A stretch of 20,000 nucleotides of DNA from Catajapyx aquilonaris (Eukaryota). The stretch is taken from positions 54,968 to 74,967 of the forward strand of contig KZ538860.1 in the NCBI GenBank assembly GCA_000934665.2, read 5' to 3'. The notes below the pieces were generated by a model that was given only the letters and a program-made list of their open reading frames with translations, had not been told where the DNA came from and did not search any database. Both the position numbers and the translations under genes were made by a program. This document shows, piece by piece, positions 1,030 to 20,000 of the stretch (its first letter is position 1; every line of letters starts with the position of its first letter).

Positions 1030-1151
1030 TAGCCGCTACTCATCAGGATCTGGATAGCGCATAAGCACATCCCTTTTCAAAGCGTTGATCGGAATGCACC
1101 CGACTCCAAAAAAACAAAAAAAAAAATGAAGAATGTTTTCCAAGATGGCGG
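1030..1151 (+). promoter_or_regulatory. Conserved promoter cassette, copy 1
   Basis: TAGCCGCTAC 1030-1039 (motif A reversed, degenerate), ATAGCGCATAAGC 1054-1066, GGAATGCACCC 1091-1101, CCAAGATGGCGG 1140-1151 (YY1/Pho-type consensus); same order as the other copies; about 105 nt upstream of ATG 1256. Confidence 0.75.
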
Positions 1152-1255: not shown

Positions 1256-2562
1256 ATGTCACTGATTGAAAGGATCAAGGAGGAGGAAGACTATGGCGAT
1301 GAAGAAGAAGTCGCGATGGAAGAGCTGTGGAAGGAGCCGTTGATAGAAGAAGCCCCTTCTTGCTCTGATCATGAAGCCACGACACCCATCAAAGGGGAAC
1401 CAGCTGAGGAGGAGGAGGAGGAGGAGGAGATGGAATACAATGTTACGGCCAAGGTGACTGAAGATGACCCATTGGCAGTTGGTTCTGCAGGCAACGGAGA
1501 GGTACGTTAGCGTCAGGAATTGCGAAACAACTTCCCTGGACTCAGTCTTCCGTAAAGACTAGCTTGTGTTTGAAAAATTAGATGGAAAAAAAAGGGATTC
1601 TAATGGTGCAATAAATGTACTGAAATTGTAAATCCAGATGGTCAGCCAGGAAAAGTCTGTAGAAAGCCAATCGTGTGTGACTTTCTCTTCAGAGCAAGAC
1701 TGGTGGTGCACCAGCAGGAAGATCTTCCATGTCGTTACGCCGTGGTAGCATCAATAGAAAACCACAGAGGAAGAGAAGCAAAAAGTTGTCAGTGAAGCAG
1801 CAAATGGCGAGAAACAAAGAGACACATCCTGTGAAGCCTGGCTGTACCTGCAAAAACAAGTGCGCAGACAAAATAACGGAGGAGAGGAGAGAGGCCATCA
1901 ACAGTGAGTTCTGGGCCTTGGACCACTGCGGACGGCAGGTGTTCATCCACGGTTCCATCACCAAGATTCCCAAGAAGCAAAGCACCACGGTTGGATTCAG
2001 CTGTCGCTCCTACAGTTTCTTTTACCATATGAGAGACCAGTACAACAATTCCTTTCGAGTGTGCAAGGCTTTTTATCTCACAACACTTGGCTTCGCCCAG
2101 AATAATGACACTGTTGTGCGGAACGTGATGCGTGTGTGCGACGGTCCGTTGTTTTTCCCTCAGCAGGATGGGAGGGGAAGGGCTCCTTCCCCATACAAGA
2201 TCGATACCACCTCCATTGAAGAGCACATCAAGTCTTACGTTCCTGGTCTATCCCAGAGGAGACGGGACAACGGGACAAATTCATCAGGTGACGTGACATT
2301 TTCTGCAATGGTGAAAGACTACAATTCCAAGCACAAGGAACGGCCCGTCTCCTACAGCATATACTGCAGGGTAGCCAAGACCATGAACATTTCAATTACA
2401 TCTGGCGGAAAAATTAGTGCTCCTAATAAACGAGTACCAAATTGCCAATATTTACAGCCTTCTCTTAATCCTGTGCAATTATCACTAAGGCTCCCGTTGG
2501 AATGCACCCAACATGGACCACAAACGGCTTCTCCTCTGCATGAGTTGCCAGGTGCCTTTTGA
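1256..2562 (+). CDS. Two-exon gene (1256-1501, 1693-2562; 371 aa): acidic family leader exon fused to a Sola-like transposase N-terminal region, no catalytic domain
   Basis: Exon 1 MSLIERIKEEE...IKGEP...EDDPLAVGSAGNGE ends at GAG|gtacgt (phase 0). Acceptor ctttctcttcag|AGC at 1693 is in frame with ORF 1729-2562. Exon 2 carries CTCKNKC..RREAINSEFW..FI..Y..RVCKAFYLTTLG..DGRG..IEEHIKSY..VSYSIY..MNISI, a motif series I recall from Sola1-type transposase N-termini. Confidence 0.72.
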
Positions 2563-3106
2563 AATGAGATGCCCAGGCAAACCGTTTCTGACAAAAAGTG
2601 CAAATGAATGGCTGATACGACCTATGAATCTCCGTGTGTTTTTTTCAATTTAGATTCCAGTGCAAATGTTTTCTGGCAAAATTCACATGTCAGTGGCTTT
2701 TCTTTTGTATGAGTCAAAACGTGCGATTTCATAGTATCTGGCCTTGCAAACCTTTTGTGACACGCACTGCAAGCAAATGGCTTCTTCTCCTCTGCATGCC
2801 TGGCCATGTGCATTTTCAAAGAGTATCTCTGCGCAAACCTTTTCTGGCACAATTGACAAGAAAATGCTGCCTTCACTCCCGTGTGGGTCACCCAAGTGTT
2901 TTTTTCAAAGTAGACGCCAAAGCAAACTCTCTCTGACACACGCTACATGCTAATGGTTTTTCTCCCGTGTGAGTCATCAAATGCGTCTTCAAACCAAAGG
3001 GCCGACTAAACTTCTTATTGCACTGATGACAAGTCTTCTCTCTTTCGACTGTCCTGATATTTGGCTCCTTCCTCCTTTCAATGATTCCATCCGCTTCTTG
3101 GTCAAC
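2465..3106 (-). pseudogene. Frameshifted, truncated C2H2 ZF pseudogene (about 6 fingers) lacking the acidic first coding exon
   Basis: Acceptor cttgcag|GTT GAC CAA GAA (VDQE, compare VAQE in paralogs) at 3106. Fingers are split over three frames, with extra bases at 2899-2905 (T7), 2891-2893 (C3) and 2639-2645 (T7). The array stops abruptly after KPF at about 2521; the corrected frame ends at TAA 2467-2465. Finger sequences resemble ZF-A (FALAS/FALES). Confidence 0.75.
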
Positions 3107-3283
3107 CTGCAAGATTAATTTATCAGTACAGTGATACAATTTTTAGGACTGAAAAGCCTGTTTCGTTCCATTTGCTCTCCATTACACAATGTAGTGTCAA
3201 TAATAATAATAATAAGATCAATAATAAGAGAGAGAGAGAGAGATGAAAGTACACTTCAAGAGGTGGTTACAAGCAATATCGGG

Positions 3284-3373
3284 CGGCCATCTTGGATTGC
3301 ATTTTTTTTTGCGGGTGCGTTCCGATGGCCACCTTTCGCTGGGGGGGAATGGCGGACGGGCTTATGCGCTATT
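3284..3373 (-). promoter_or_regulatory. Conserved promoter cassette, copy 2 (minus strand; divergent to the MADF gene)
   Basis: Reverse complements of CCAAGATGGCCG (3284-3295), GGAACGCACCC (3313-3323) and AATAGCGCATAAGCCC (3358-3373), in the correct order for minus-strand transcription toward the ZF pseudogene. Confidence 0.8.
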
Positions 3374-3529
3374 AATGGGGGAACAGCAGCGATTGCACGA
3401 CGATCCCAATAATACCGATCGAATCGATCGTATCAGAAGAAGAAGAAGCCCGTGTCCGTCCGTCTCTCTCTCTCTCTCTCTCTCCTTCCTTCTGGTGGTC
3501 CATTGTCCACCAGAGCAGCTACAGGCAGG

Positions 3530-5030
3530 ATGGCCCCTCCAAGAACTAAGAAGGAGGCTGCGAAACTGCGCGCGCGGGAGAGGATGCGGCAGGCGGCGGA
3601 GTGGAAAGGGAGGCTTCTGGCGGAGGTGCAGGCCCGGCCGGCCATCTGGGACAAGGGGGGCGGAGGACGAGATCGGGAGGCGGTCGAGGCCATGTGGGAC
3701 CAAGTGGTCGAGGCCATGGGCTCCATGGACAGTAGGTGTCTTCTTCCCTCTGTCTAAAGCACTTGAAACACTTACAATGAGACTAATAATTGCCCAATTC
3801 TGTCTAAATACAATGTCAGAGGCCGAATGCAAAACCGCATGGAGGAACCTAGTGGACATCCACAGGAAAGTCCACCAGCAAGTGAGCAGAGAGAAGAAGA
3901 GTGGGCAGGGATACGTGGCTCCCCCAAAGTGGCAGTATTATGATGCCATGTCGTTCCTGCGAGGTCGCGCAGAAAACAGGGTGTGAGTATATCACTATAT
4001 ACCGTTATGTCATGGGTGCCCAATGCGCAATTGTTCGCAATAGCATTGCAAATAGTTTATCGAGTCAATTTTCCGCAGTTGTGATACATCAATATTTCGC
4101 GAGCTTGGAAAAATTTCTAAACTCTGGAATTCATTCCTCCAATAATGGAGTCGTGATAATTTTGTGGCTCAGTTGCATTGCAATTAATATAAGTGTTCCT
4201 CATGCCTCATTCAAGGGAAGAACTCGTGACTATAGCCAACATCGACTGGGGACATACTGAAGAACCAGACATGTACGCCGACGACTCCCTGACAGCCGAT
4301 GACTCCCTGACAGCCGACGACCCCCTGGCAGCCGACGACCCCCTGGCAGCCGACGATCCTTTGTCACCCCACATACATGACATTGCATCCCGTTCTTCCA
4401 CTCCCACTGCATCCCTTTCTTCCACACCCACCATACCGCTTTCCCCAAGCGCAACACAGACTCCCCACAGCATTGAACCTCAAAAGAAGAAGAAGAAGAG
4501 GATGGAGGAAATTGCCAAGACCTCTGCATCACAAAAGTCGGGCCTGCCAACGTCTGCATCGACAACTTCTCTACTGCCGATGTCTACGCCAGTGGATGAC
4601 GCGATGATTAGAACATTGCAGGATATTCGTGCGTATGTAAAATTAAAAGCTTCGGTATCCCCCAATTACGTAAAGTAACATACGAACTGGGACGTCATTA
4701 CAAGCCATTATTTTGTCCAATTGCCAGTCGTGCTGCAATCTTGCATCCAAAACAGATGGCAGTCCATTGTAATTTTTTCTGATGCTGTGAAAGTCATTGT
4801 GAATGTGACAATGCTAAAAGAAGCCATAATCTGTTTTAACCTATACTGAGTCATCACAACAATTAATGTTCCCTTTCAGGCGACTAAGTGAGGAGCCGTC
4901 CGACTTCAGCAGACTGTCACAGTACCTCGAGGGCCATTACACTAAATGGTCTGCCAGCAGCAAGGAGGCATTCGAGCATGCCGTTGTCAGATTAGCCTGG
5001 GACATCCACAAGGCTGACGGCGGAAAATAA
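3530..5030 (+). CDS. MADF (Myb/SANT-like) domain protein with a C-terminal BESS-like motif; 4 exons 3530-3731, 3820-3982, 4216-4632, 4880-5030 (310 aa)
   Basis: MADF signature LLAEVQARPAIWD...WDQVVEAM...ECKTAWRNLVD...KSG...KWQYYDAMSFL. Phase-consistent introns: A|gtaggt..tcag|AG (phase 1), GT|gtgagt..caag|G (phase 2), GC|gtatgt..ttcag|G (phase 2). Exon sum 933 nt = 311 codons. Last exon RLSEEPSDFSRLSQYLEGHYTKWSASSKEAFEHAVVRLAWDI resembles BESS; NLS-like KKKKKR. Confidence 0.85.
4277..4366 (+). repeat. Coding minisatellite, 5 x 18 bp (ADDSLT/ADDPLA)
   Basis: Units GCCGAYGACYCCCTGRCA start at 4277, 4295, 4313, 4331 and 4349 (last one diverged), in frame in MADF exon 3. Confidence 0.9.
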
Positions 5031-5457
5031 AATGTCCAGATTCAAAAAACTGACTCGCAAGTATTTCATTATTTACAATATGCAGTTGAATCTCCTTAAT
5101 CTCAACTCTACGTAAATAGTAACAAAATGCCAATAAGGTCAAGTCCCACACGAAGGAATATGGTGGATGGCTGTCAATTATAATTATGGAAGTTTCATTT
5201 TGTCCTGTGATGCACATGGCCCCACGTGACCACAACCTGTTCAAGTATAACGACAATTAATTGTTTGCAGCAGGAAACTTATTCCAGGAATGTCCAGTCA
5301 ATGTCCTGAAGGTCAGTGTTAAAGCGCAGAGTATTCTAATGCTCGTGGTTACTTCCAACGCTGAATTTGTCGGTATGAGTTGTTTGCACTAATTAATAAA
5401 AAGAGAAGCACAAGTTAATTGAGCCAATTGAGCTGGAGGTGAGCTTCCCCCTGACAA

Positions 5458-5592
5458 GTAGCAGTTACCAAGAAGAAGCCGTTACTGCTCCTGCCAATAG
5501 CGCTTAAGGCCCTCCCTCCCCCTCCTTTCAACCGCCTTGTAGTGTGGGCGATACGAACGCACCCCACACACGTCACCAAGCCAAGATGGCCG
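5458..5592 (+). promoter_or_regulatory. Conserved promoter cassette, copy 3
   Basis: GTAGCAGTTACC 5458-5469, AATAGCGCTTAAGG 5496-5509, GAACGCACCCC 5555-5565, CCAAGATGGCCG 5581-5592; ATG at 5700. Confidence 0.8.
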
Positions 5593-5699
5593 ACGTGTGG
5601 AACATCATCATTATTTTATAGTTAGCTGTGCACGGCAAGTCTCTCGGGATTAATCGAGGCTGTGGTTCATACTGGCAGTGGGTGTTTCCCCTAAGGACA

Positions 5700-8421
5700 A
5701 TGTCCTCTTCTTCTGAACTGGTGGTCAAGGAGGAGGTGGAGGGGGAAGAACAGGCCGTCACTTCGGAGGCATGGAAGGTGGCTGTCAAGCAGGAGGCCAC
5801 CGCGTTCTACTCTGATGATTGCCAAGACGCGTCGTCGTCGACAGCTGCAGGGGACGGCGGCGGGATTAAAGAGGAGCCGGACGAGGAGGAGGAGGAAGAG
5901 ATGGTGGCTGCAGTGGCAGCAGGAGGGGATGCCGAAGAAGCGGTCGACCCTTTATCCACGGTTGGACGGACTGGCCAGGTATGAAGGATGATGAGTTGAA
6001 TGGCCTGATCAACATGCACTGCTCCCGTCAACAACAAACATCCCCAATTCTCAAGTTCCCACGGAGATGCCCTCAGGCAACAAGAACTAGCATGCCCGCA
6101 GGAGCTACTCCATTCGCATTGAGTACCGGCCACACAATCCAATGCCTTTCTTTTTTGCCCATATCCCATGGCCAGAAATCTCACGTATTCATTGACCCAG
6201 GCGTGATTGCTCAGCTCACATGAGTTTGTGTCATAATATATTATGCTGCAGTTTGTCCAGGAAAAGGCTACATGGGATTTCAGGGAATTTTGAAGTACTG
6301 CAGCGTTGGCAGATGCATATTGAACCCAACATAGGACACATTCAAATCAAAATATTCCACATAGCATCCATTCATTTTTTTTTAGAGCAAACATAGGGGA
6401 CAAGGTGGGGGTGGAGCAGGCAGAAATTTAGGGGAAAAAAACCATGTGGCCATGCATTATTTTCCTGAGCTGACTCCATCTGCACTCATCATTTTACACA
6501 TCCCATAGGAATCAATTCTGTGCACATATTAACTCGACCAATTGAGGCATGTGATTGGCCACCTCAGATGAGGCAATGAAAATTTCGCCAATTATTACTA
6601 CATAATGGATCATAGGGCCAGTTTTCAGCATGGAGGCTATTTAATTCTTGCATATCCACTACAACACTAGTACACTACAGGGAAATGCCAGGTTGCTTGC
6701 TGGTACAGTAGTAGCAATCTAAATATTTATGACCTCCTACCCTTACAGTTCCTTCAGATCTTTTCTCGTGATGCATATGTGCAAGCAGAAAAAAAATTAT
6801 CTCTCACCCACCATGTAATTTTAGACTTTTTCTCATCGAAGACAAGTCTGGCATAACTGCCCGTCCGTCCATCTGCGGACAGGTTATCAGGGCCTAAACC
6901 GCTGGAGATAGCGACAAATTGTTGTCGGATTCAGATTTGGCAGACCCTGAATAGGTATCAGGGTCAACTTCTGGTTTTCCGGGTACACTCGATCCCCCAA
7001 GATCAACTCTATACTGTATAGGTGGGGTGTCCTGAGGATCCTTGGCAACATGGAATAGATTGCTCTCAGCCTAATTTCAGGAGTATTATCAGTACTACAA
7101 CACTGCCAAATGAGAAAAAGTTCACTGGAATCATGCTCGCGGCTATGGCAAGATGGATTTTACGATCCTGAATACAAGACTAACGTACATGCTTGACTTT
7201 ACAATGTTGCAAGATATTTCTTGGTTGTTATGAAAGAATACTGAATCATGCAGCCATGGTAAACCACCTACTCCCCTCATCTCCAGGTTCGACATGTTAA
7301 TGGGGACAGTTAATTCAGAGCTACCTCGTCATGCTCTAAACAGTTGTGATAATCTTGCGCTTTCCCACACTTTCTGTCCTGCTATCCCTCGTTCCCCAAC
7401 TGCAAAATATTGCTCGATACCACCCATTTAAACCATTTCCATCTTACAGGTGGCCCAAGAAAAACATGTTGCGAGCATGGAGGAAGACATTCAGACGGAA
7501 AGTCAAATGCCGAGAAGTGAGGGAGAAAATCAGGGATACAGGAAGACTTGCTCGGGAGAGGAGCCACTCGCTTGTCCATTGTGCCAAGAGAAGTTTAGTC
7601 TAGGACATGAATTTAGAAGGCACATGTTAAGTCACCCCAAGGAGAAGCCTTTCATTTGCCAGATATGCCAAGAGGGTTTCTGTCTGGAAGCCCAGCTGTT
7701 GGGCCACTTGTCAAGTCACCCTCCTAACGAGACGCCTTTTGTTTGCCAGATATGCCAAAAGGGTTTCTATGGAGAAGCCCAGCTCTCAGCCCACACGAGA
7801 GCTCATTCAATAGAAAAGCAATATGTTTGTCAAGTGTGCCAGAAGAAATTCCCTTGGCCATCTGACTTGAAAAAACACTTGGTAACGCACACGGAAGAGA
7901 AGCCTTTTGATTGCAAAGTGTGTCAAAAAAAGTTTAGTAGGGCATCTGATCTGAAGAAACACCTAGTGATTCACACAGAAGATAAGCCTTTTGATTGCCA
8001 AGTGTGCCAAAAATCTTTTTATAGGGCGTCTGATTTGAAGAAGCACTTAGTGTCTCACACAGGAGAGACCCCATATTTCTGTCACGTATGCCAGAAAAAT
8101 TTCAGGAGTTCATCTAGTTTGGCCAACCACCTAAAAATCCACACGGGGGAGAAGCCGTACTGTTGTGACACCTGCCAGAAAAGATTTAGCCAGTCCAATG
8201 ATTTGAAAGTACACAAGAGGATTCACACTGGGGAAAAACCATTCGCATGCACAGTGTGCCCGATGAAATTCCGCCAGGCACGTCATTTGAAAGTCCACAT
8301 GTGGACTCACACCGGAGAGAGACCAATTGCATGCACGCTATGCCAGAAGGCATTTCGCCAGGAATGTCATTTGAGAGACCACATGAAGAGGGCTCACACT
8401 GAAGAGAAGACACGTGCCTGA
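5700..8421 (+). CDS. C2H2 zinc-finger protein ZF-B; exons 5700-5978 and 7450-8421 (416 aa, acidic leader plus 10 fingers)
   Basis: Exon 1 MSSSSELVVKEE...IKEEP...AVDPLSTVGRTGQ|gtatga (phase 0); acceptor ttccatcttacag|GTG GCC CAA GAA; 10 intact C2H2 fingers; stop TGA 8419-8421. Confidence 0.88.
6635..7240. mobile_element. About 600-bp intronic insertion in ZF-B relative to ZF-C, possibly a non-autonomous element remnant
   Basis: The flanks (GGCCAGTTTT.AGCA at about 6616; TGAATCAT..ACCACCT at about 7242) are only about 30 bp apart in the ZF-C intron (12742-12797). The insert contains CGTCCGTCCATCTG...AAACCGCTGGAGATAG (about 6862-6911), reminiscent of DINE-1/Helentron-associated elements. Boundaries are approximate. 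Confidence 0.4.
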
Positions 8422-9399
8422 ACCATGTCAGGTTGGCTGCAGTGGCTGCAGAACTCTTGGTAACCAGTTCATCAGGAAATTAGCCAATTGATGACTTATG
8501 TTTCCCCCCATCTCCACATTCCGTACCCTCTGCTCAGTGATTCTCAAGGTTTTCTCTCTCTCTCTCTCTGTCCATAGTGGTTGAGTTTTACTAGTGGTTT
8601 TATTTTGTGAATTGAACTAAATTGCTGCAAGATCGGTTGTGTGGAATCAAATAATATTCCTTTTGTTACATTATTGTGGGGCATTATTAGTGAGGAAGTA
8701 CCAGAGAAACTTTACAGACATTGTGAAGAAAGTGTATTATGGTTATGGATATTAATTATATGGGTACAACTTGGTGATCAGGGGATAAGACATGGGCTCC
8801 ATGCTATAGAGTGTGTCACACTACTGTAGAAGACCTTCGCATAGGGGTCAAATGGTGAGAAAAAGTATATCCTTTTTGCAAGTTCCCATGACATGGACCC
8901 TGCAATGGCAACGATGACTGCCCCTTTTCTGTACAGCTTCAATGGAGAATCAATCGACACACAATAAATTATATGCCTATCAGTTCTATATTGAGGATTT
9001 GCATGTTGTTGTTTGAGGCAGTGAGTTCCGCAGCTTGACTGAATGGCTCCATAATAAAAGGACGTTCTGTTCCCATCAGGATGGACCAGGCAAATAGTAA
9101 CTTCTTTTTTGGTGGTTTTTAATTTTTTTGCGGCGGTTTGAAGAGGAATTAAGTCAAAGTGTAAATGGCAGGAATGCACTTCACGACGGTGGGGATCTGT
9201 GTTCAAAATTTGGAAGCCCTACCTACAGCAGAACTTGAGTTAGGGCGAAAAAAAAAAAAAGCGTAACAACATGATGTTGAAAAAATTCATAGTTTAAAAT
9301 TGTTGTACGGTCACTCTTGAAACAATATCGTTCACATGTTATATATCACAATGTTGAATTGTCACATAATGTTTCATTGTAACACAATGCTGCATTGTG

Positions 9400-9470
9400 A
9401 CATTATCATGCATAAATGTCACATTGTCATGCAGAAATGTCACATTGCCATACATAAAATGTCTCATTAT
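9400..9470. repeat. Short minisatellite, about 3.4 x 21 bp, downstream of B9D2
   Basis: Units ACATTRYCATRCAKAAATGTC start at 9400, 9421 and 9442, with a partial fourth copy. Confidence 0.7.
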
Positions 9471-9543
9471 CAGGTGAGACTGTTGTAAAATTTCTGTTGA
9501 CTACTCCAATTGCAAAAAGAAGAACAAGTGTTTGGTGTACATG

Positions 9544-10605
9544 TTAGTACTCGACTCCAAAGTCTCTGAAGTTTTTGAACAGGATGTTCAACTCGAGATG
9601 CACTGTTCCCATGGACTGCGTTTGCAGCCGGTACCGGTCCACTCCAGTGTAGACCAACTCGGGGGATCTCAGTTCAGGTCCTCCTCCGAGAAAGAACTGC
9701 GTGATCCTGTCCCGGGTGGAGCTGATTGGTCGCCAGGTCTGCACCTCGATTTGATGGGGTCCAGGTGTGCATGGGATGTAGCAACAGCCGTATGCGTAGA
9801 TCTCGCTGCGCCCAAACGCGTCTAGATGGTACACTTCCACGTGTATCTTCGGCCAACCTACGAGCAAAATCCGGCTTTGAAAATCATTACGTAACATTAT
9901 TGAAGAAAGAGTTTGTTTCTTTAATGTTATAGTAATGTTTATGAAACACTACTCTGCAACATTACTAAATGAATGCCCCTTGCACAGGATGGCCCTAAAT
10001 GCCTAAAGTCTGGACACGTAGGCATACGTAATTTTGTATTGCATTGTATTGCTAGTTGACAGTAACTGGCAACCAACAATGCAACATGTGCCCAGGCGTT
10101 AAGGCCACCCTGTGTCAATGGGAATGTGAGGAACAGTGGTAGGTGGACTTATGTTGTAACTACACACCTTTGATACCTTTGGTGCCATAATGTATGTCAA
10201 TAGGGTGGCTCCAGCAGGATAGGTTGTCATGAAGGGGGCAGTCTACTTGTGTTTGTCCTTCAACCTCACCTTCCAGAACCGACCATGCGTCTCCTAATAA
10301 AATAATTATAGTATCAGGAGCACAAGTACAGTTTAAAAAAATTACATGCATAATACAGGCTGTAATAGGAGAGCGAGAGTGATTCATCAGTCATGGATAC
10401 ACATACAAAACTAATGCCTATCCCATATTATATGTCAAATGAAATCAATGTTGGTGCATAGCAGTGTAATTGGTTATTTGTTTACTGAATGAAGTGCCAA
10501 TAAGTGTTGGGTCATACCTGCGCCACAGTAAAACTTGCAGAAGATGTTTCGGCCTGGAAAGGACTTGCCTCCGACTATCTCTCCGATTACGTGAACTTCA
10601 GCCAT
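9544..10605 (-). CDS. B9D2: B9 domain-containing protein 2 (ciliary transition-zone MKS module); exons 10605-10518, 10293-10168, 9857-9544 (175 aa)
   Basis: Spliced translation MAEVHVIGEIVGGKSFPGRNIFCKFYCGAG-DAWSVLEGEVEGQTQVDCP...[39 protein letters not shown]...FFLGGGPEL...NFRDFGVEY matches the B9D2 family as I recall it; two phase-1 GT-AG introns; 88+126+314 = 528 nt. Confidence 0.95.
9983..10114. mobile_element. 132-bp fold-back (MITE-like) element in B9D2 intron 2
   Basis: Left end CACAGGATGGCCCTAAATGCCT..GGACACGT resembles the reverse complement of the right end, CACAGGGTGGCCTTAACGCCTGGGCACATGT. Inner arms TTGCATTGT (10039-10047)/ACAATGCAA (10076-10084) and TTGCTAGTT (10049-10057)/AACTGGCAA (10064-10072). 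Confidence 0.6.
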
Positions 10606-10975
10606 ATTCGTCCTTCTCGACTGTTTTCATGGCCTCGGGTAGAGCGACCACTGCGAGGCCACTAGGAGGACACAATATATAAACCAGCCGGTCGATCGAT
10701 CGATCGTCCAATGCTTGATGACTCAGAGTGCAAGCAGGAATGAGCAGGTGCTGTTCACCTGGTGGATGCGGTATATAGAGGGAGTTCAATCGATATGACT
10801 GTAAAGACTGCCAAAAGAATTGTGTTGTAAACATCAACTCTAGTTCAACAGTAACTATTGTTGTTGTTGCTACGCATTTTATTTTCGGGTACTGTACTAT
10901 AATTATTTTCATCGCTCAACAACAATAGAGACGATTTTGTTGCATTATTTTGATTCTAGTGCAGCTGGCCGGAGC

Positions 10976-11157
10976 GTAGCAGTGACCGAGAAGTAGCAGT
11001 GACCGAGAAGTAGCAGTGACTGCTGCTCTGGGCCAATAGCGCCCAAGCCCCTGCATTCCCGGTCACGTGGTCAGTCAGTGAGACCAGCTGAACGCACCCT
11101 TTTTCGTTCGAGGAGGAGAGCACGCTTGTGAACGCACCCCCAGTTCCAAGATGGCCG
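10976..11157 (+). promoter_or_regulatory. Conserved promoter cassette, copy 4 (head-to-head with B9D2)
   Basis: GTAGCAGTGACCGAGAA as a 17-bp tandem repeat x2.6 (10976-11020), AATAGCGCCCAAGCCC 11035-11050, GAACGCACCC twice (11090-11099, 11130-11139), CCAAGATGGCCG 11146-11157; ATG at 11380. Confidence 0.8.
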
Positions 11158-11379
11158 ACGAAGAAGAAGAGGTGGAGCACTTCTTCTTCTTCTAGTTGTG
11201 TGCAGCACGTCTTATTACCCGTGAAGATGACCTGCAGCCCAGGTCGACAATAACAAGAGAGACACCCTGTGGTTGGCCATTATTAGTACTTCCCACTCCC
11301 AGTCAAAGCTGGTGACAGAACTTGCGTGATATTTTTGGATTGTCTGATTGGTCGGTATTTTCCCAGTGTTTTCAGGACC

Positions 11380-13933
11380 ATGTCGTCGTCAGCACTGGTG
11401 GTCAAGGAAGAGGGGGAAGAGGGTGAGGAAGAGGGCGTGACTGCGGACACATGGAAAGTGGCATTGAAGCAGGAAGTCACCGTCTTCTCTGATGACGACA
11501 ACTCGACATCTCTAGAGGACGGGATTCATGGATTTGAACCAGTGGATGAGGAGGAGGAGGAGGAGGAGGAAGAGATGGTGGTGGCAGTGGCAGGAGGGGA
11601 TGCTGAAGATGCTGTCGACCCATTATCAGTTGGTTCAGAAAGGACTGGCAAGGTATGAACTAGATATGAGTTCACTGAAAGGTCGAATCGAGTATACTGC
11701 CATTGATCCCAGCAGCTTCTGTGCTAGTGAGAACCACTTTGCCAAGACAAAAAAAAAAAAGGAACAATACTAATTGAAACATTTCAGTTGTTGGTGGCAC
11801 GCATGGAAATTGGAACAACATGTTATCTCTGGCAATGGCAGTGCAAGGCGAATCTCCTAATAGGTGCTCAATGCCAGGGGTGCTCTTCCTGCAATGTATA
11901 TGCAGATCAGCCTGTCTTACACTCTCGCAGCTAGTTTGGACAAATTTAGCCAGAAATTAGACTGAGCATAGTCAATGTGGAATATTGCCTCGGTGCGTAC
12001 TCTGGGAAGTTGTTTCCCTAGTTTTGAAGTCGATAGCACCAAATTCGGCAGGGGACAGTACATGACAGCTGGTCATTACACTTTACCACATTCCTTTAAT
12101 ATCTTTCTATCAATTGTTGGAAGTTTGTTTGTGTGCTAAGTTTGTTCACAATAAAAATCCAGGGGAATGAATGTCCACCACTATTAACTAGCATACTAGG
12201 GGTCACATGTAGGAGTAATTTAATGACATCTGTGTAATGTTGGAGTTACTGAAAATGAACCTAGCTCGCACAATGCGCATAATTCCTCTCAGTGCTGCCC
12301 TCCATTTACATGGGTACAGCCCGGAGCATAAAGTTGCAGACGGCAGGTCCTCCCCTTCGGCAGGCTGCTCTGCCAATCCCCGCCATTACGGTATCAAACA
12401 GACGGTTATAAATACACCAACACATGCCTGAAGCAGCTCAATCAGCCCAAAAAGAGGCAATTAATTTGAGTCGAATAAAGGAAGGCCAGAGAAGGCCTGG
12501 CAGCGTCTCCAACTTTATGCTCGGGGCTGTACATCCATTTACATCTTTTTCCTGCCACCCATCATTTCGCTGCATCATGATTTTTTTTGCTTACATATCC
12601 AATCAAGGAGCACACATTCCATGTACTCACCAACTACACTAACCGAGGCGTGACTGGCCACCTCGCATGAGTTCCTATTGCATAGTAGGCCCGGCTGCAT
12701 GGTATTCCATAAAATTCTGAAGTCGACTCAATGGCCCGTAAGGCCAGTTTTAAGCACATCGAGTATATGGATGGAGTTTAGTGAATCATACCACCTTCTC
12801 GCCTCGTCTCCAGGTTCGACAAGTTATTGGACAGTGAGTTCAAAGCTAGCTCATTCTTGAAACAGTTGTGATATTATTGCTTTCCCACATGCCCTGACCT
12901 GCTGTGCTTCCTTCCCCAGTTGTAAAATATTGCTCGGTAACACTCATTCACCATTTCTGTCTTTCAGGTGGCCCAAGAAAAACATTATGTTGCACGCATG
13001 CAGGAGGAGACCCAGAAGAAATGTCGAAGGTCCAGATGTGAGGATAAGAATCAGGAGAAGGAGAAGACTAGCTCAGGAAAGGAGCCACTCGCCTGTCCAT
13101 TTTGTCAAAAGACGTTTAATCTGGTATATATATTTAGAAGGCACATGTTAACTCACCGCAAAGAAGACCATTTTGTTTGCTGGATATGCCAGAAGGGTTT
13201 CTCTCAGGAAATTCAGCTGAAGGGCCACATGAGAGCTCATTCAACAGATATGAATCATGTTTGTCCAGTGTGCAAAAAGAGGTATAACAAAGCATGTGAT
13301 TTGAAAAAACACTCGGAAGCTCACGCTGAAGTGACCCCCAGTCATGTATGCCATGTGTGCCAGAAAGAATTCAAAAATGTGTCTAATTTTAACAATCACA
13401 TGAAAATCCACGCAGCGCAGAGGCTATATTATTGTGGCACTTGCCATAAGAAATTCAGACATACGGCTCACTTGAAAAATCACATGAAAATCCACACTGG
13501 GCAGGCGGTACCGGAACATTGTTGTGACACTTGCCAGAAAAGATTCAGCAATTCATATGCTCTGAAAGTACACAAGAGTGTTCATACTGGAGAAAAGCCA
13601 TTTGCATGCACAGTGTGCCAGAAAACATTTAGCCAGGCACGTCATTGGAGTGCCCACGTAAAGAGGGCTCACATTGGTAAAGGGTCAAGCGTCTGTGAAG
13701 CAAGTGAGAGGAAGTTCGAATCGGAAGAACCCGAGGTAACTGATGCAGGCGAGAATACACACTGTTGCCAATTTTGCCAGAGACTATTTAGCCATTCAAT
13801 TGATTTGACAGTCCACATGCGAACTCATATTGGGGAGGAATCATTTGCATGCACCGAGTGCAATGAAGAATTTCGGGAGTTGCCACATTTGAAACTGCAC
13901 ATGAATACTCACACTCCAGATTCCAGTCACTGA
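11380..13933 (+). CDS. C2H2 zinc-finger protein ZF-C; exons 11380-11652 and 12968-13933 (412 aa; 9 intact fingers plus 1 degenerate)
   Basis: Exon 1 MSSSALVVKEE...LKQE...AVDPLSVGSERTGK|gtatga (phase 0); acceptor ttctgtctttcag|GTG GCC CAA GAA; degenerate finger CEASERKF lacks the second Cys and both His; stop TGA 13931-13933. Confidence 0.88.
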
Positions 13934-14562
13934 AGCTGCTTAATAAGGGGGAATGAAAATGCCTCGCTAAGGAGCCACATGCTACCAAGTGTCTGACCAA
14001 TGTGACACATTAGTAGATGAGGGGAAGAAAAGAGCAGCCGATGTAGTAGCGTAACGTAAGGCTGGATGTCAATCGAAGATTGCAGGCTGATTATTGTGAA
14101 CTGGTGATGACAGGTTAGCCCCCAATTAACTCCAGTAAATTGGTTCCAGTGAATTTGAGTGTGAAAGGGGACGATTGTAATGTAAGTGAATGAGGTAGGT
14201 AGAAAATAATATTATTTAAAGACCACAACTTTTCTATTGAAGCCCAAGGCAATCTTGAGTTTAAGGCACTGGATGGGTTGAAGCCCCAGTGATATTTGAT
14301 AGTGGACCATTATCCGACCTTGTCGATGCGTACCACTGATGCACATCCCATTGCCCACCAGTTGCAAGGCACTGATGTACTACATAATAAAAATAATGAT
14401 GAAGTAAGAAACAAAGTTGGCCCATGAGCAAATGCCCTTCCCCTTGACATGCTATAATAAATGAGTACTACTTGACAGATGCCCGTGAGTACACTGGTAC
14501 ATTCATGTGATCGAGACATTCTCTTCTAACTATTTCAGTCAAGTCGAAAGGGGGAATGGCGG

Positions 14563-14722
14563 GTAGCAGTTACGGAAGGAGTAGCAGCGACGGAGGGCTG
14601 CCCGCGGCCAACAGCGCTTAGTCCCCTCCATCCATTGGCACGGGTGGGAGCGGCCGTCGGAACGCACCCCCTCTCTTTTTGTCATAAACAAAACAACAGC
14701 AACGCTGAGCCCAAGATGGCCG
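14563..14722 (+). promoter_or_regulatory. Conserved promoter cassette, copy 5
   Basis: GTAGCAGTTAC at 14563 and GTAGCAGCGAC at 14581, GGCCAACAGCGCTTAG 14606-14621, GGAACGCACCCC 14659-14670, CCAAGATGGCCG 14711-14722; ATG at 14908. Confidence 0.8.
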
Positions 14723-14754
14723 CCGTCGGACGGACGCGGACGTGATTTACACAG

Positions 14755-14755
<1 letters not shown>

Positions 14756-14823
<68 letters not shown>
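14756..14823. repeat. (TAT)n microsatellite, about 22 units, inside the putative 5'UTR intron of ZF-D
   Basis: Perfect trinucleotide run starting in the donor ACAG|GTATTA at 14755. Confidence 0.95.
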
Positions 14824-14824
<1 letters not shown>

Positions 14825-14907
14825 ACTGGCTGAATTCTTCTCAATGCTCGCAGGCGAACCTAACGAAACTGGATTTTCATGTTCATGGATGGTGTTTTCC
14901 CAGGACA

Positions 14908-16808
14908 ATGTCATCAGCGCTGGCAATCAAGGAGGAGGAGGAGGTGAAGAGGGAAGAGGAGGAAGAAGGGGCTGTCACTGTGGAAGAAACATGGCAGTTG
15001 GCAGTCATGCAGGTACCTACATTCTTTTATGTGATGTCGACACCACCTGCAGGGGACGGCGGGATTAAAGAGGAGCCGGTGGACGAGGAGGAGGAGGAAG
15101 AGATGGTGGCAACGGCGGCAGGAGGGGATGCCGGAAATGCGGTCGACCCATTATCAATTGGTGCAGAAAGGATGACTGGTGAGGTATGCAAAATGAGTTT
15201 ACTGAAATGCCAGATCAAGATGCATGGCAGTGCATCCCGCCAAGTCCATGCAACTTCCACTGATCCAGACTACACATCTCTTGCTGCCGTGCATCCTTTA
15301 CTGGAGCTCACTCGCTCTCCCTCTACATTTCGGCATTTTCTAGTTCGGCACAGGGAAACGCTGGAAGGCTGAAATTTTAATACGACGATGGGGGCACACC
15401 CGGGGACCATACAAATAAATTGTCGGGAAATTTGGACCACTAGGTTCACGCCAGGAGAGGGCCCAAATTGGCTTGGTTTTTGTCTGATTCATATACAGGG
15501 TGTAAATGAATTCAGGGGACCATTTCACAAAAATAATAATAATAATAATAATAAATCGCGCGGCAAACGGCGCGTTGGGCATATTTGTCGCGGGGCATAT
15601 TATTGCCAATAATTAATAATAATTGGCGGGGCACGCGTTTGCCGCTTGACGCTGCCGCAAAATCTTTTTGTGCTTCGGCCTTAACTTGTAGGGGCAATAG
15701 AGGGGACCAATACAAGTATTTTTGACATTGGAACCCGTGTCCGGAAACGCCATCTGGAGGGGGTTCAGAGACGAGGAACGGGTGCGCTCAGACGCGTCAG
15801 GCAGACGGCGTTAGCGAGGGGACCGTTTTGTTGCTAGGTGGCACGCAGATTGTACACAACTTTGCAATTCGCCATAACCTGGCAACAACAGAGTTGCTGT
15901 TTATTATCTGCATGCTACCTAGCATGCTGACTTTAGTTGCTAGGTGGCTCTGTTGTTGCCACGTTTGGGCACATCCCGTCATTGGTTACTGTCCGAGTGC
16001 CACCTAGCAACTAAACGGTCCCAACAAAAACAGAGATTTCTGCTTTCACTGTGCCTGTAATGCGCACTGCTATGTTCTGATTAATGACATCCATCAAAAA
16101 TGAAATATTAGCTCCCTGAAAATTATGCAAGACCAAAATATACGAAATTTCCAGGTGGCCCAAGGAAAACCTGTTGCAAGCATCCAGGAGGAGAACAAGA
16201 TGAAAGGTCAAAGGTCCACCACATGTCAGGATAAGTATCAGGAATACAAGAAGACTCGCTCAGGAAAGGGGCCACTCGCCTGCCCATTTTGTCAGAAGAA
16301 GTTTAATCTGATATACGATTTCAGGAGGCACATGCTAACTCACCGCAAAGAAGAGCATTTTGTGTGCTGGATATGCCAGAAGGGTTTCTCTCAGGAAATT
16401 CAGCTGAAGGGCCACATGAGAGTTCATTCAATAGAAAATGTATGCCATATATGTCAGAAAAAATTCATATGCTCGTCTAATTTGAAACGTCACATGAAGA
16501 GCCACACAGGGCAGGTGAAGTCATATTGTTGTGACACTTGCCAGAAAAATTTTAGCAGGCCATATGCTTTGAAATTGCACAAGAGGACTCATACTGGAGA
16601 AAAGCCATTTGCATGCGCAGTGTGCCAGAAAACATTTAGCCAATCATATGATTTGACAGTCCACATGCGAACTCATATTGGGGAGGAATCATTTGCATGC
16701 ACCGAGTGCCATGAAGAATTTCGGGAGTTGCCCCATTTGAAACTGCACATGAATACTCACACTCCAGATTCCAGTCAGTCACTGAAGCTGCTTAATAAGG
16801 GGGAATGA
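14908..16808 (+). CDS. C2H2 zinc-finger protein ZF-D; exons 14908-15183 and 16155-16808 (309 aa; 6 fingers)
   Basis: Exon 1 MSSALAIKEEE...IKEEP...AVDPLSIGAERMTGE|gtatgc (phase 0); acceptor aatttccag|GTG GCC CAA GGA; 6 fingers; stop TGA 16806-16808; close paralog of ZF-C. Confidence 0.86.
15683..15827 (+). repeat. Interspersed repeat fragment (copy 1), related to 19250-19394
   Basis: Shared blocks AACTTGTAGGGG..TAGAGGGGACCAA..ACGCCATCT.GAGGGGGTTCA.AGAC..CAGGC.GACGGCGTTAGC; a TA|CAGGGTGT end-like motif lies upstream at 15494-15503. Confidence 0.7.
15819..16022. mobile_element. 204-bp nested fold-back element (MITE-like) with 26-bp inverted ends
   Basis: GGGACCGTTTTGTTGCTAGGTGGCAC (15819-15844) matches the reverse complement of 15997-16022 at 25/26 positions; inner perfect 14-bp inverted repeat 15880-15893/15948-15961; central GCATGCTA-CC-TAGCATGC 15910-15927. 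No clear target-site duplication. Confidence 0.75.
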
Positions 16809-17555
16809 AAATGCCTCGCTAAGGAGGCAGATGCTACCAAGTGTCTGACCAATGTGACACATTAGTAGATGAGGGGAAGAAAACAGCAGCTGATGTAGCG
16901 TAACGTAAGGCTGGAGGCCGATCCAAGATTGCAGGCTGATTATTGTGAACTGGTGATGACAGGTTAGCCCCCAATTAACTCCAGTAAATTGGTTCCAGGG
17001 AATTTTAGTGTAAAAGGGGACGATTGTAACGTGAGTGAGGTAGGTTCCAAAATTCTGCAAATTTTCCCTCAAACAGCGGCAATATTTCTGTTTTTAATGC
17101 CGAGTGTTTGAAACATTTCATACACACCCTTGATGGCAGGTTGTTTCGACAGTGGAGGTAACTGCACCATGGAGTAAATATTGCATTGGCTCCGAAACTG
17201 CGGTTCTCTTATTTTCCCGTGATGTGCCTCATCTCATAATTCTACTTGTGATAATTTTAGTATGTAGAGTACCATCAAAACCTGCAGTGTCTGACAGGTG
17301 TCAGTAGAAAATAATTTTTTTTACTATAATTAATTATATGCTGGTGAAGAGCAACTCTTTGGTTTGAGCCCACATTCAAGGCAATATTGAGGTTGATTCA
17401 AGGCACTGGATGGGTTGAAACTTACGGTGGACCATTATCCGACCTTGTCGATGCGTGCCACTGATGCACATCCCATTGTCCACCAGTTGATCTATAACAA
17501 AATGCTGGAAGTAAAAAACCATGAGCAAAATGACCTTCCCTGTCCACCTTGAAAC
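16634..17555 (+). repeat. Segmental duplicate of 13786-14450 (last fingers, 3'UTR and downstream DNA of ZF-C)
   Basis: 16634-17045 is nearly identical to 13786-14200; after 260 extra bp (17046-17305), similarity resumes (17306-17555 versus 14201-14450). Confidence 0.9.
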
Positions 17556-18217
17556 ATTAATGAGGGATTTCTCAGATATCTGTCGCTACCCATACCATCA
17601 ATAAGACATGTTACTCTGTATACTGTATAAGTCAAATTAATTTTGTGACAATAAATGAATGCTCTGATTTTCACAGCCAATGACTTCCTATAGAATGAAA
17701 TATAATAATTGTATTCTACTGAAGCATCTCGTCAAGTAAGTATACTCAGACCCTGGGAGAGCAGCCGAAATATTAATTGCATTGGGAAAGGTCACAAAGA
17801 TGGCGACAACACCTGAGACTCTGGTCAAAAGTAATGAGTGCTGTTGTGTGTTTGAATGCAGCAACAACAACTAATGCCCGGAAGGCTCCGAAGGGGACTA
17901 TTAAAGGTAAAGTGACTTACAACCAAAGTAACTATTTTTACCCTCCTAAATTGTGTTTTTTTTTCTTTCTACTTATTCTGCGTTGCGGCTAATTTTCACG
18001 TCAAAATACCAGGCAAAATGGGATATTTCGCAGCCACAACACCTAGCAGCGACTGTAGCGCGCTCTAAGGTGGTGCGAGCAAGTAGACCTCAGACGATTC
18101 GATATCGATTTTGTGTGGCAATTTATGAATCAATCGATCATTTACCTATTACTGATATCAGTCGCCTACGACCCGCGACCCGCCAGCCGGAACCAGCGAC
18201 CCGCGACCAGATGTTGT

Positions 18218-18315
18218 GGTAACCGCTACTCGGGTGAATAGCGCATAAGCCCGTGTATTTTGATGGCAGCCGTCGGAATGCGCCCGAAGGACGGATTTGG
18301 TTTCCAAGATGGCCG
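18218..18315 (+). promoter_or_regulatory. Conserved promoter cassette, copy 6
   Basis: GGTAACCGCTAC 18218-18229 (motif A reversed), AATAGCGCATAAGCCC 18237-18252, CGGAATGCGCCC 18274-18285, CCAAGATGGCCG 18304-18315; ATG at 18547. Confidence 0.8.
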
Positions 18316-18546
18316 CCGTTGGATGGATCATGGATGGCCTCTTTCGCGCTTGATTCGCCCGTTTCCTTCCTGGTTGTGCCCGTGTTTTGATGTGTACCAG
18401 GTAGGGCATCACCCGGGGTGACCCCGCAGGAACAGGAGGAGGAGGGAATAAGGGACGGGCAGCATGGCCATCGAAGAGGCGCTTGCTGATTCCAAGAAGT
18501 GTTGGCTATTGCCACTGAATGGGAATAATATTCATTTACAGGGGCC

Positions 18547-18864
18547 ATGTCATTGCTGCTGGTCAAGGAGGAGGAGGAGGAAGGAGGAGATGAGATGGCC
18601 ACGACTCAGGAGGAGGAGGAGACCTGCTGGACGACGGTGCTGAAGGAAGAGGTCCCCATGTCGTTTGAGGAAGGTCCATCTCTACCAGTCCCCACATCCT
18701 TCGTGGACAGCCCAGTGGTGCTGAAGGAAGAGGTGATTCACGCGGTCAAAGCTGAACCAGTACAAGAAGAAGAGGAAGAGATGATGGCAATTTCTCCAGA
18801 GATGCCGTGTCAAGACGATGCGGTAAATGACCCATTGGCAGTTGTTTCTGGAAGCAGACATGAG
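18547..18864 (+). CDS. First coding exon (106 aa acidic leader) of another family member; the downstream exon probably lies beyond the window
   Basis: MSLLLVKEEE...CWTTVLKEE...VKAEP.EEEEEMM...VNDPLAVVSGSRHE|gtaatt, with a phase-0 donor as in paralogs; acceptor ttcatttacag| 5 nt before the ATG; no ZF exon found in 18865-20000. Confidence 0.78.
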
Positions 18865-19221
18865 GTAATTAGTCCCAAAGAGCTCGTGTAGAGCCCCGCG
18901 ATTACACGTAAGAGACACCACTAGGAATAATAGGCGCCGGACAGCTCTCAAACGTAAACATATTCTCCAGACATCTATAACACGTCTGCCTACCTTCCAA
19001 ACACACTCTCAAACACTGATCCCATAGTAACTGTTACCAAGACATTAATCCACCTGGACAACAATAGCGACAGTCTTGCCAACATGACTCGAAACACTAC
19101 AAATGAACACACAATGTAAAGAGTGGGAAAAACCGGTTTCCAAGTGCCGCCACTTTTTGGCCACTTGTTTAAGTAGCCAACATGTTTGGCTCTTGGCCCC
19201 AACGAGTTCTGCTATGATATA

Positions 19222-19394
19222 TACAGGGTGTTTCCGAGCTATCTTTACAAACTTGTAGGGGTAGTAGAGGGGACCAAGTCAAACATTTTTCACGTAGGAA
19301 ACAGAGTCTGGATACGCCATCTAGAGGGGGTTCATAGACCAGGAGCAGGTGCGGTCAGGCACTTCAGGCGGACGGCGTTAGCAAGCGGACTGTT
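19222..19394 (+). mobile_element. Tc1/mariner-like element end fragment (copy 2)
   Basis: Begins TA|CAGGGTGT, a terminus type common in Tc1/mariner-derived elements, and aligns by eye with 15683-15827; the opposite end was not found in the window. Confidence 0.55.
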
Positions 19395-20000
19395 AAGGTG
19401 GAAATGAAGCGACTTGCTAATCAAATGAGAGTCTAGAATTGGAATGTTAATAAGAAGGGCTAAAATCAGGGAATCATACGCAACCGATGCAGCAGGAAAT
19501 GCTGTTCAATCCTATGCATTCCTTTCGAATCTGCGTGTTAAACTCGATTTAATATGAGCCTATTACCGGCTGCAAGTTCTTGTGCGCAGGCGCCATTTTC
19601 ACAACTGCCAACTTAAACATGGTATTAGGAGGTGTGCTTAATATTTTTTATTTTAGATGGAAATCGATTTAATCCGGTCGTAATTACGAGGTCCCAATTT
19701 GTCATGGCATTTTTAAAAGTTCAGTTCCGAAAGGGGAGCCTGTAGCTCTTCATTTGTGTCGGATTTGGAACACGTTCAGTTGGTACGCGGGTGACAGATA
19801 GAAGCGGCAACGCAGCAAAGGTCCGGGCCAATTATCGCGTAGAAATGTGACGTCATTGCCGGGTGGATTCGAATGATTCGATTTTTATATTATAATTATA
19901 ACGATATAAACTAATATAACGGTTCTGACGTCTGACAAACACCCCCGCCAAACGAAAATCCTGTGTGAGCCATTGTGAAAACCATCATACTAACTTGCAC

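Follow-up and report, generated by a model that had tools for sequence, protein, structure and literature searches.

The analysed window, 20,000 nt of one contig of Catajapyx aquilonaris (KZ538860.1, positions 54,968 to 74,967), contained five paralogous genes whose coding sequence opens with a short acidic exon, and our results supported this exon as a common module under purifying selection. We read the peptide that it encodes, here called the head, as a probable lineage-specific counterpart to the KRAB and FiNZ heads found in the zinc-finger genes of other animals. We give a probability of roughly 45% to the reading that the head is a disordered, lineage-restricted segment that would bear several SUMOs and act as a portable repression module. 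Coordinates are window positions on the + strand unless marked (-).

The five exons stood exactly where the original prediction had placed them, each with an ATG start, a length divisible by three and a GT directly after its last codon, which constitutes a phase-0 donor. The exon of gene 1 (1256..1501) encoded 82 amino acids (aa) with two matches to the SUMO consensus psi-K-x-E, a single Trp and the sequence DPLA, followed by the phase-0 GT donor. The exons of gene 2 (5700..5978, 93 aa) and gene 3 (11380..11652, 91 aa) carried three and two matches, respectively. Gene 4 (14908..15183, 92 aa) had three matches, with VKRE located within a gene-4-specific insertion, and gene 5 (18547..18864, 106 aa, GT donor present) had four, with LKEE located within a gene-5-specific insertion. 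These counts (2, 3, 2, 3 and 4 for genes 1 to 5) and all motif strings listed in the original prediction were recovered, and the common layout that it had described, consisting of (V/I)KEE, one Trp, E-P with poly-Glu, and DPL, was found in the five paralogous exons.

In the protein alignment of the five exons, identity to the first copy was 37-48%, and 16 of the 76 ungapped columns were invariant. Among the columns without an acidic majority (n=51), the only invariant ones were M1, the Lys in the opening (V/I)KEE, the Trp, the Pro that follows the third K-x-E, and the P and L of DPL; the D of DPL was invariant as well. Exactly one Trp was present per exon (5/5 exons), together with 1-3 further aromatic residues (F/Y), 2-7 Leu and 0-2 Cys. 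The net charge of the heads ranged from -20 to -25, and the poly-Glu runs varied in length among them. A hidden Markov model (HMM) built from the five exons and run against the six-frame translation of the window matched precisely these five exons and no others.

The pairwise ratio of nonsynonymous to synonymous divergence (dN/dS) of the acidic exons was 0.17-0.47, with dS ranging from 0.57 to saturation, so that the shared module of the original prediction was supported as one under purifying selection. Similarity was lower at third codon positions than at the first two (0.51 vs 0.67), and the codons of the invariant Pro and Leu showed synonymous differences among the paralogues. At the DNA level, alignment of the paralogous units was confined to the acidic exon, the finger exon, bits of the promoter and, in one pair, about 190 nt of intron. 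Because of this dN/dS, codon-position and intron evidence, the shared sequence of the head is attributed to selection at the protein level and not to recent duplication alone. The motif columns had a mean identity of 0.90 compared with 0.62 elsewhere, and none of 20000 random column sets reached 0.90, a comparison that is circular in that the motifs had been picked for conservation. The expanding family that had been proposed was seen in the window as five copies.

Putative SUMO acceptor sites of the head

The richness in psi-K-x-E noticed in the original prediction was real: the five exons held 14 matches in total, whereas shuffles that preserved composition gave an expectation of 0.98 and none of 5000, when pooled, came up to 14, a pooled figure that overcounts because the five exons are paralogues. 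Taken singly, the exons gave P values of 0.018 or lower, and 14 of the 19 lysines lay inside a psi-K-x-E. Site 1, a (V/I)KEE with an acidic run, was present in 5/5 exons; site 2, a (V/L)K(Q/E)E after the Trp, was present in three of the five; and site 3, an (I/V)KxEP with poly-Glu, was present in four. Where a site had been lost, its lysine was replaced by I, M or H and never by R, and the private insertions of genes 4 and 5 each added one new psi-K-x-E.

An acidic run followed the motif at site 1 in 5/5 exons and at site 3 in 4/5 exons, and site 3 was also followed by Pro. The combination of the motif with a downstream acidic run corresponds to the negatively-charged-residue-dependent SUMO motif (PMC3395311). 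This form favours direct recognition by Ubc9 (PMC3395311), on which a basic patch has been described (PMC5727262). Cores resembling SUMO-interacting motifs (SIMs) were seen only in genes 3 and 5, where they were not aligned with each other.

From these features we infer SUMO conjugation, repression and docking through Trp and DPL as the likely activities of the head. The finger array would hold the protein on DNA, and Ubc9, the E2 enzyme, would conjugate SUMO directly to the psi-K-x-E lysines, with sites 1-3 as the acceptors together with one extra private site each in genes 4 and 5. The surface formed by several SUMOs would then recruit chromatin repressors bearing SIMs, and the patches around the invariant Trp and DPL may assist this recruitment as short docking motifs. 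Acting in this way, the head would work as a portable repression module, like the silencing region of Panoramix or the IKEE-type motifs of SP3 and MGA. Of the 166 repression domains found to carry psi-K-x-E in a human tiling screen, at least 149 needed the motif for repression, and a 10-aa IKEE tile of MGA was sufficient to repress (bioRxiv 10.1101/2022.08.26.505496). Drosophila Panoramix contains an acidic disordered stretch that has five consensus SUMO sites along with a short hydrophobic motif; this stretch recruits Sov through two contacts, SUMO-SIM and the motif, causes silencing upon tethering, and needs no E3 for its SUMOylation in vitro (bioRxiv 10.1101/2021.07.27.453956).

Several points weigh against the proposed SUMO-dependent repression. 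SUMO on the heads and a transcriptional effect stand as predictions, and psi-K-x-E is a short and permissive motif that was present in 12.3% of the inactive tiles of the human screen (bioRxiv 10.1101/2022.08.26.505496). In the pooled shuffle test, inherited motifs entered the count more than once, neither site 2 (3/5) nor site 3 (4/5) was universal, and the conservation of the head is known from five paralogues of one window. The co-repressor motifs PxDLS, PxVxL, WRPW, eh1 and LxxLL were absent in 5/5 exons, and since the heads contain no known co-repressor motif, a docking role of Trp and DPL would be without precedent. The disorder predicted for the head rests on an alignment of five rows. 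The acidity of the head, its Trp and its few F, Y and L residues also fit the make-up of activation domains (bioRxiv 10.1101/2022.08.26.505496).

This last point leads to the main rival, an acidic transcriptional activation domain, which we consider unlikely. In such a domain, the acidic residues would expose Trp, Phe, Tyr and Leu to co-activators, and the psi-K-x-E motifs would be SUMO dampers ("synergy control") or incidental. Activation domains in the human screen were marked by acidic residues around aromatics or Leu (bioRxiv 10.1101/2022.08.26.505496), and the net charge of -20 to -25, the invariant Trp with 1-3 more aromatics and 2-7 Leu per exon, and the lack of a predicted fold would be compatible with an activation domain. 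However, the aromatic and Leu content was low for 82-106 residues, and the most conserved and most enriched feature was the lysine motif, not a hydrophobic cluster. Deletion of SUMO motifs, moreover, rarely altered activation and usually abolished repression (bioRxiv 10.1101/2022.08.26.505496), and where tandemly expanding zinc-finger families with an N-terminal exon of their own have been put to the test, as for KRAB and FiNZ, they repress (PMC10547256).

Fold, relatives and comparable systems

The head was predicted to be without a stable fold. AlphaFold2, run on the five-sequence alignment, gave a predicted local distance difference test (pLDDT) score of 57.6 and a predicted template modelling (pTM) score of 0.13 and showed no secondary structure, and this model supported intrinsic disorder of the head.

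Profile searches agreed with the original prediction, which had reported neither the four-Cys pattern of ZAD nor KRAB, BTB or SCAN. The Pfam profiles of KRAB, ZAD (zf-AD), BTB and SCAN gave no match at E<=1 in 5/5 exons, and the exons had 0-2 Cys each. The only Pfam matches of the five exons were two at chance level, both on exon 3 (E 0.08 and 0.31). The five-exon profile that had been recommended as a check matched no described domain. Run against 1.84 billion representative proteins, among them arthropod proteomes but seemingly not that of the source species, it found no credible relative, within what so short and low-complexity a profile can detect. Two of its matches (E 2.2e-4 and 3.8e-4) were internally repetitive proteins aligned on acidic stretches in 5-6 pieces and were judged to be non-relatives. 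A word-index search with exon 2 against longer proteins produced 2614 candidates, none of them at E<=0.01, and the ESM Atlas returned no usable match for exon 3. No such head was described in the literature on arthropod C2H2 expansions and ZAD or on SUMO zinc fingers with IKEE/VKEE, as far as a limited search reached.

KRAB is a folded helical domain. That the head is a highly diverged member of KRAB, a KRAB-like domain or FiNZ, with its similarity eroded below detection, is very improbable, because no Pfam match to KRAB at E<=1 was obtained in 5/5 exons and no helices were predicted, although the gene layout with a head exon upstream of a finger exon is the same. The head is also Glu-rich, as FiNZ and KRAB are (PMC10547256), but FiNZ is reported to be confined to cyprinid fish (PMC10547256) and the B9D2 gene flanking the family members was closest to insect proteins.

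In layout and evolutionary behaviour, the genes with the acidic head are of the same kind as KRAB-ZNF, ZAD-ZNF and especially FiNZ-ZNF genes. FiNZ is a Glu-rich N-terminal sequence of 28 aa, unlike known domains, that has been reported only in cyprinids (PMC10547256). Both are short Glu-rich heads that occupy one exon, located upstream of the exon for the fingers, in families that expand in tandem and are restricted to a lineage (PMC10547256). In the window, this layout was given by the joints of genes 3 and 4 in run X5 (described below) and by a homologous acceptor in gene 2. The two heads differ in length (82-106 aa here, 28 aa in FiNZ), in the predicted lack of structure here and in the host, an arthropod-like genome in contrast to cyprinids; they are set apart by description, not by sequence. 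As to the lineage, the B9D2 gene was closest to insects (53-63%), and the clusters nearest to the open reading frame (ORF) of gene 1 were mostly from Arthropoda, two weak pointers to an arthropod source, perhaps a hemimetabolous insect. The FiNZ paper makes no mention of SUMO in its main text and describes the silencing mechanism of FiNZ as open (PMC10547256). Zebrafish FiNZ heads may likewise contain motifs of the psi-K-x-E type.

Like the KRAB genes of tetrapods, the genes in the window carry an effector head and a finger array on separate exons, stand in a tandem cluster and differ by gain or loss of fingers (nine in gene 3 vs six in gene 4). Unlike in KRAB genes, a profile match and predicted helices were absent, and KRAB acts by binding TRIM28 (PMC10547256), whereas the head is proposed to act by SUMOylation. 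ZAD of insects likewise forms the N-terminal module in those zinc-finger families of arthropods that are most abundant and expand rapidly (PMC7913770, PMC5081699). It is, however, a folded dimerisation domain that binds zinc via four Cys (PMC7913770, PMC5081699), whereas the heads had 0-2 Cys and no zf-AD match.

Panoramix is similar to the head in being an acidic, disordered orphan sequence (the disorder of the head being predicted from a shallow alignment) with several consensus SUMO sites by short hydrophobic patches. Panoramix itself silences when tethered and is a direct substrate of Ubc9, as is proposed for the head. Panoramix is, however, recruited via RNA and Piwi and not via zinc fingers, docks by LxxLL (bioRxiv 10.1101/2021.07.27.453956), which is absent in 5/5 heads, and has no sequence relationship with the head. 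SP3 and MGA are alike in that an IKEE-type psi-K-x-E in a transcription factor is necessary (SP3, PMC2978682) or sufficient (MGA, bioRxiv 10.1101/2022.08.26.505496) for repression. SP3 and MGA are unrelated, single-copy factors with one such site each, in contrast to the 2-4 sites here in an exon that is reusable within a gene family.

If the proposed SUMO-dependent repression is true, the effector heads of zinc-finger genes can consist of modification sites alone. Rapidly expanding zinc-finger families are thought to be the DNA-guided arm of transposon control in animals, and to our knowledge the silencing route of such families is known only for KRAB, via TRIM28. [quoted passage not shown] With three positionally conserved putative SUMO sites and the W and DPL patches in a free-running acidic chain, a hypothesis that can be tested by mutation is available for a non-vertebrate family. 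A more far-reaching proposal seems doubtful to us, namely that the head is an independent arthropod counterpart of KRAB made of SUMO acceptor sites and not of a folded domain. It would be a portable, promoter-linked exon whose product, once held on DNA by the fingers, is SUMOylated directly by Ubc9 and recruits the general heterochromatin machinery (SIM factors of the Sov/SetDB1 kind) through SUMO-SIM contacts and W/DPL. The way in which Panoramix works among piRNAs would in that case also serve a DNA-guided, rapidly diversifying zinc-finger family, and the head could be lent to captured transposon ORFs.

Gene models and the partner exons

Splicing was deduced from sequencing run X5, the kind of which is unrecorded. 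Its contigs were read as transcripts because nine joints had GT..AG or CT..AC ends and 0/9 of them were seen in the DNA run X1; the depth at the three key joints was 3-6. At these three joints the acidic exon ran on into its partner in phase 0 with the reading frame kept, connecting 1501 to 1693 (gene 1), 11652 to 12968 (gene 3) and 15183 to 16155 (gene 4). The zinc-finger exon of gene 3 (12968..13933) encoded nine fingers and that of gene 4 (16155..16808) encoded six. In gene 2, the zinc-finger exon (7450..8421) encoded ten fingers and began at an in-frame acceptor, CAG/GTGGCCCAAG, assigned by homology to genes 3 and 4; an X5 contig bridging 5978 to 7450 was not seen, and the model of gene 2 rests on homology because no contig crossed its intron. 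A downstream partner exon of gene 5 was not found inside the window. Of the swappable DNA-binding exons inferred in the original prediction, phase-0 splicing to finger arrays was seen in two genes by X5 and is predicted in a third by homology, and swapping came down to one candidate case, the non-finger ORF of gene 1. At the contact residues of the fingers, genes 3 and 4 differed at 7 of 24 positions, compared with 19 of 102 other positions; diversifying selection on the finger contacts was considered and dropped, the differences being too few.

The acidic exon is the first coding exon but not the first exon, which narrows what had been called a shared first exon. This follows from an intron in the 5' untranslated region (5'UTR) of gene 3 (11272..11366, with a GT..AG joint from 11271 to 11367 in an X5 contig) and from AG acceptors located 4-13 nt ahead of the ATG in genes 2-5. 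Gene 4 had a long (ATT)n microsatellite (14753-14830, +) within its presumed 5'UTR intron, directly 3' of a donor-like CAG/GT site.

Several contigs of X5 and X1 followed a given family member as far as an exon edge, beyond which they diverged or entered another member, at 4484-4503, 5718, 5901, 15085 and 18401-18445. Contigs that diverge at exon edges in this manner suggest that more expressed paralogues exist outside the window.

In gene 1, the X5 contig spliced the acidic exon across a GT..AG intron (1502-1692) onto a second coding exon (1693..2562) that consisted of a 289-aa ORF without zinc fingers and a stop codon. The ORF began with a CxCxxxC pattern and was single-copy by DNA depth. 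Its nearest neighbours in the Atlas were unnamed "hypothetical protein" clusters, mostly from Arthropoda, with scores of 0.94-0.96, and in the nearest cluster with a Pfam family, DUF7869 was present in 11% of the members. Pfam itself gave only DUF7768 (E 0.11), neither a homologue of similar length nor a relative in the PDB was found, and AlphaFold2 on the single sequence gave a pLDDT of 36.7. The arrangement is reminiscent of the host-transposase fusion KRABINER (bioRxiv 10.1101/2020.05.07.082677), in which a foreign ORF is joined by splicing to the effector exon of a zinc-finger gene. In contrast to KRABINER, the clusters nearest to the gene 1 ORF are unnamed arthropod hypothetical proteins, and a transposon origin is here a candidate only.

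Promoter or leader cassette and genomic neighbourhood

A AAGATGGC(C/G)G box, which we take to be a candidate GCCAT-type transcription-factor site, preceded all five acidic exons on the same strand, 114-241 nt upstream of the ATG. The window contained eight matches to it with at most one mismatch, compared with 1.9 expected, and 0 of 200 shuffles reached eight. A second element, GAAYGCRCCC, had eight exact matches versus 0.15 expected, and seven of the eight were placed 9-43 nt upstream of a AAGATGGC(C/G)G box; the eighth, at 2500, was a stray promoter box (GAATGCACCC) inside the gene 1 ORF. Farther upstream, AATAGCGCWTAAG was found in three of the five units, with four matches in the window versus 0.04 expected, the fourth belonging to a reversed cassette.

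The cassette of gene 1 (1053..1151) consisted of a AATAGCGCWTAAG-like box at 1053-1065 (one mismatch), GAAYGCRCCC at 1092-1101 and AAGATGGCGG at 1142-1151. The boxes of gene 2 (5496..5592) were at 5496-5508, 5555-5564 and 5583-5592, and those of gene 5 (18237..18315) were at 18237-18249, 18276-18285 and 18306-18315. Gene 3 (11090..11157) had GAACGCACCC twice (11090 and 11130) and AAGATGGCCG at 11148-11157, and gene 4 (14660..14722) had GAACGCACCC at 14660-14669 and AAGATGGCCG at 14713-14722. The AAGATGGC(C/G)G box of each gene contained an ATG (1145, 5586, 11151, 14716 and 18309; +) that opened an upstream open reading frame (uORF) of about 7-15 codons beginning with Met-Ala. The box may serve as a transcription-factor site, as a uORF start, or as both.

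The family is best read as being delivered in units of promoter, short leader and acidic coding exon, the last of which is spliced in phase 0 onto a DNA-binding exon. It offers a compact example of a promoter and an exon travelling as one cassette, in one case onto a non-zinc-finger ORF. The constant company of the promoter also bears on a further explanation, in which the head is an acidic tail without effector function that is carried along with the promoter cassette whenever the gene is duplicated. An acidic, disordered tail is able to inhibit a DNA-binding domain, and the head might be a DNA mimic that folds onto the basic fingers to tune their binding, or might aid solubility or stability. 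Its extreme negative charge, its variable poly-Glu runs and its duplication always together with the promoter and leader boxes are in keeping with such a tail. Charge alone, however, does not account for the invariance of Lys, Trp and DPL, for a psi-K-x-E count 14-fold in excess or for the lack of replacements of K by R, and the head of gene 1 is spliced to an ORF without zinc fingers, so that we regard a non-effector tail as quite unlikely.

A sixth cassette of three boxes (3284..3373, -) was reversed, lacked an acidic exon and adjoined a decayed zinc-finger fragment. This fragment (2622-3142, -) contained five fingers over two overlapping frames and no ATG, and together with the reversed cassette it is probably a decayed member of the family. 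The reversed boxes may serve as a divergent promoter, as a MADF-domain gene begins just beyond them on the other strand.

The MADF-domain gene lay between genes 1 and 2 (3530-5030, +), with X5-backed introns joined from 3731 to 3820, 3982 to 4216 and 4632 to 4880. Its third coding exon encoded a tandem peptide repeat (ADDSLT twice, ADDPLA twice and DDPLS). Therefore, through the ADDPLA and DDPLS repeats, the DPL(A/S) motif of the heads recurs in an unrelated neighbouring transcription-factor gene. The B9D2 gene, which encodes a ciliary B9-domain protein, was located inside the cluster (9544-10517, -), with X5 joints for two introns (9855 to 10166 and 10292 to 10517). The best protein matches of its exon were from insects, with 53-63% identity and none nearly identical.

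An Rfam match to CrcZ, the sole one in the window, scored 22 bits against a gathering score of 95 and was taken as chance. High-copy repeats were located at 8672-9338, 15342-16008 and 18677-20000, where the summed contig depth of the DNA run was 6000-14000 compared with about 25 elsewhere. The same repeat family was present in two introns, those that follow the acidic exon in gene 4 (15683-15827) and in gene 5 (19250-19394), with 81% identity between the two copies.

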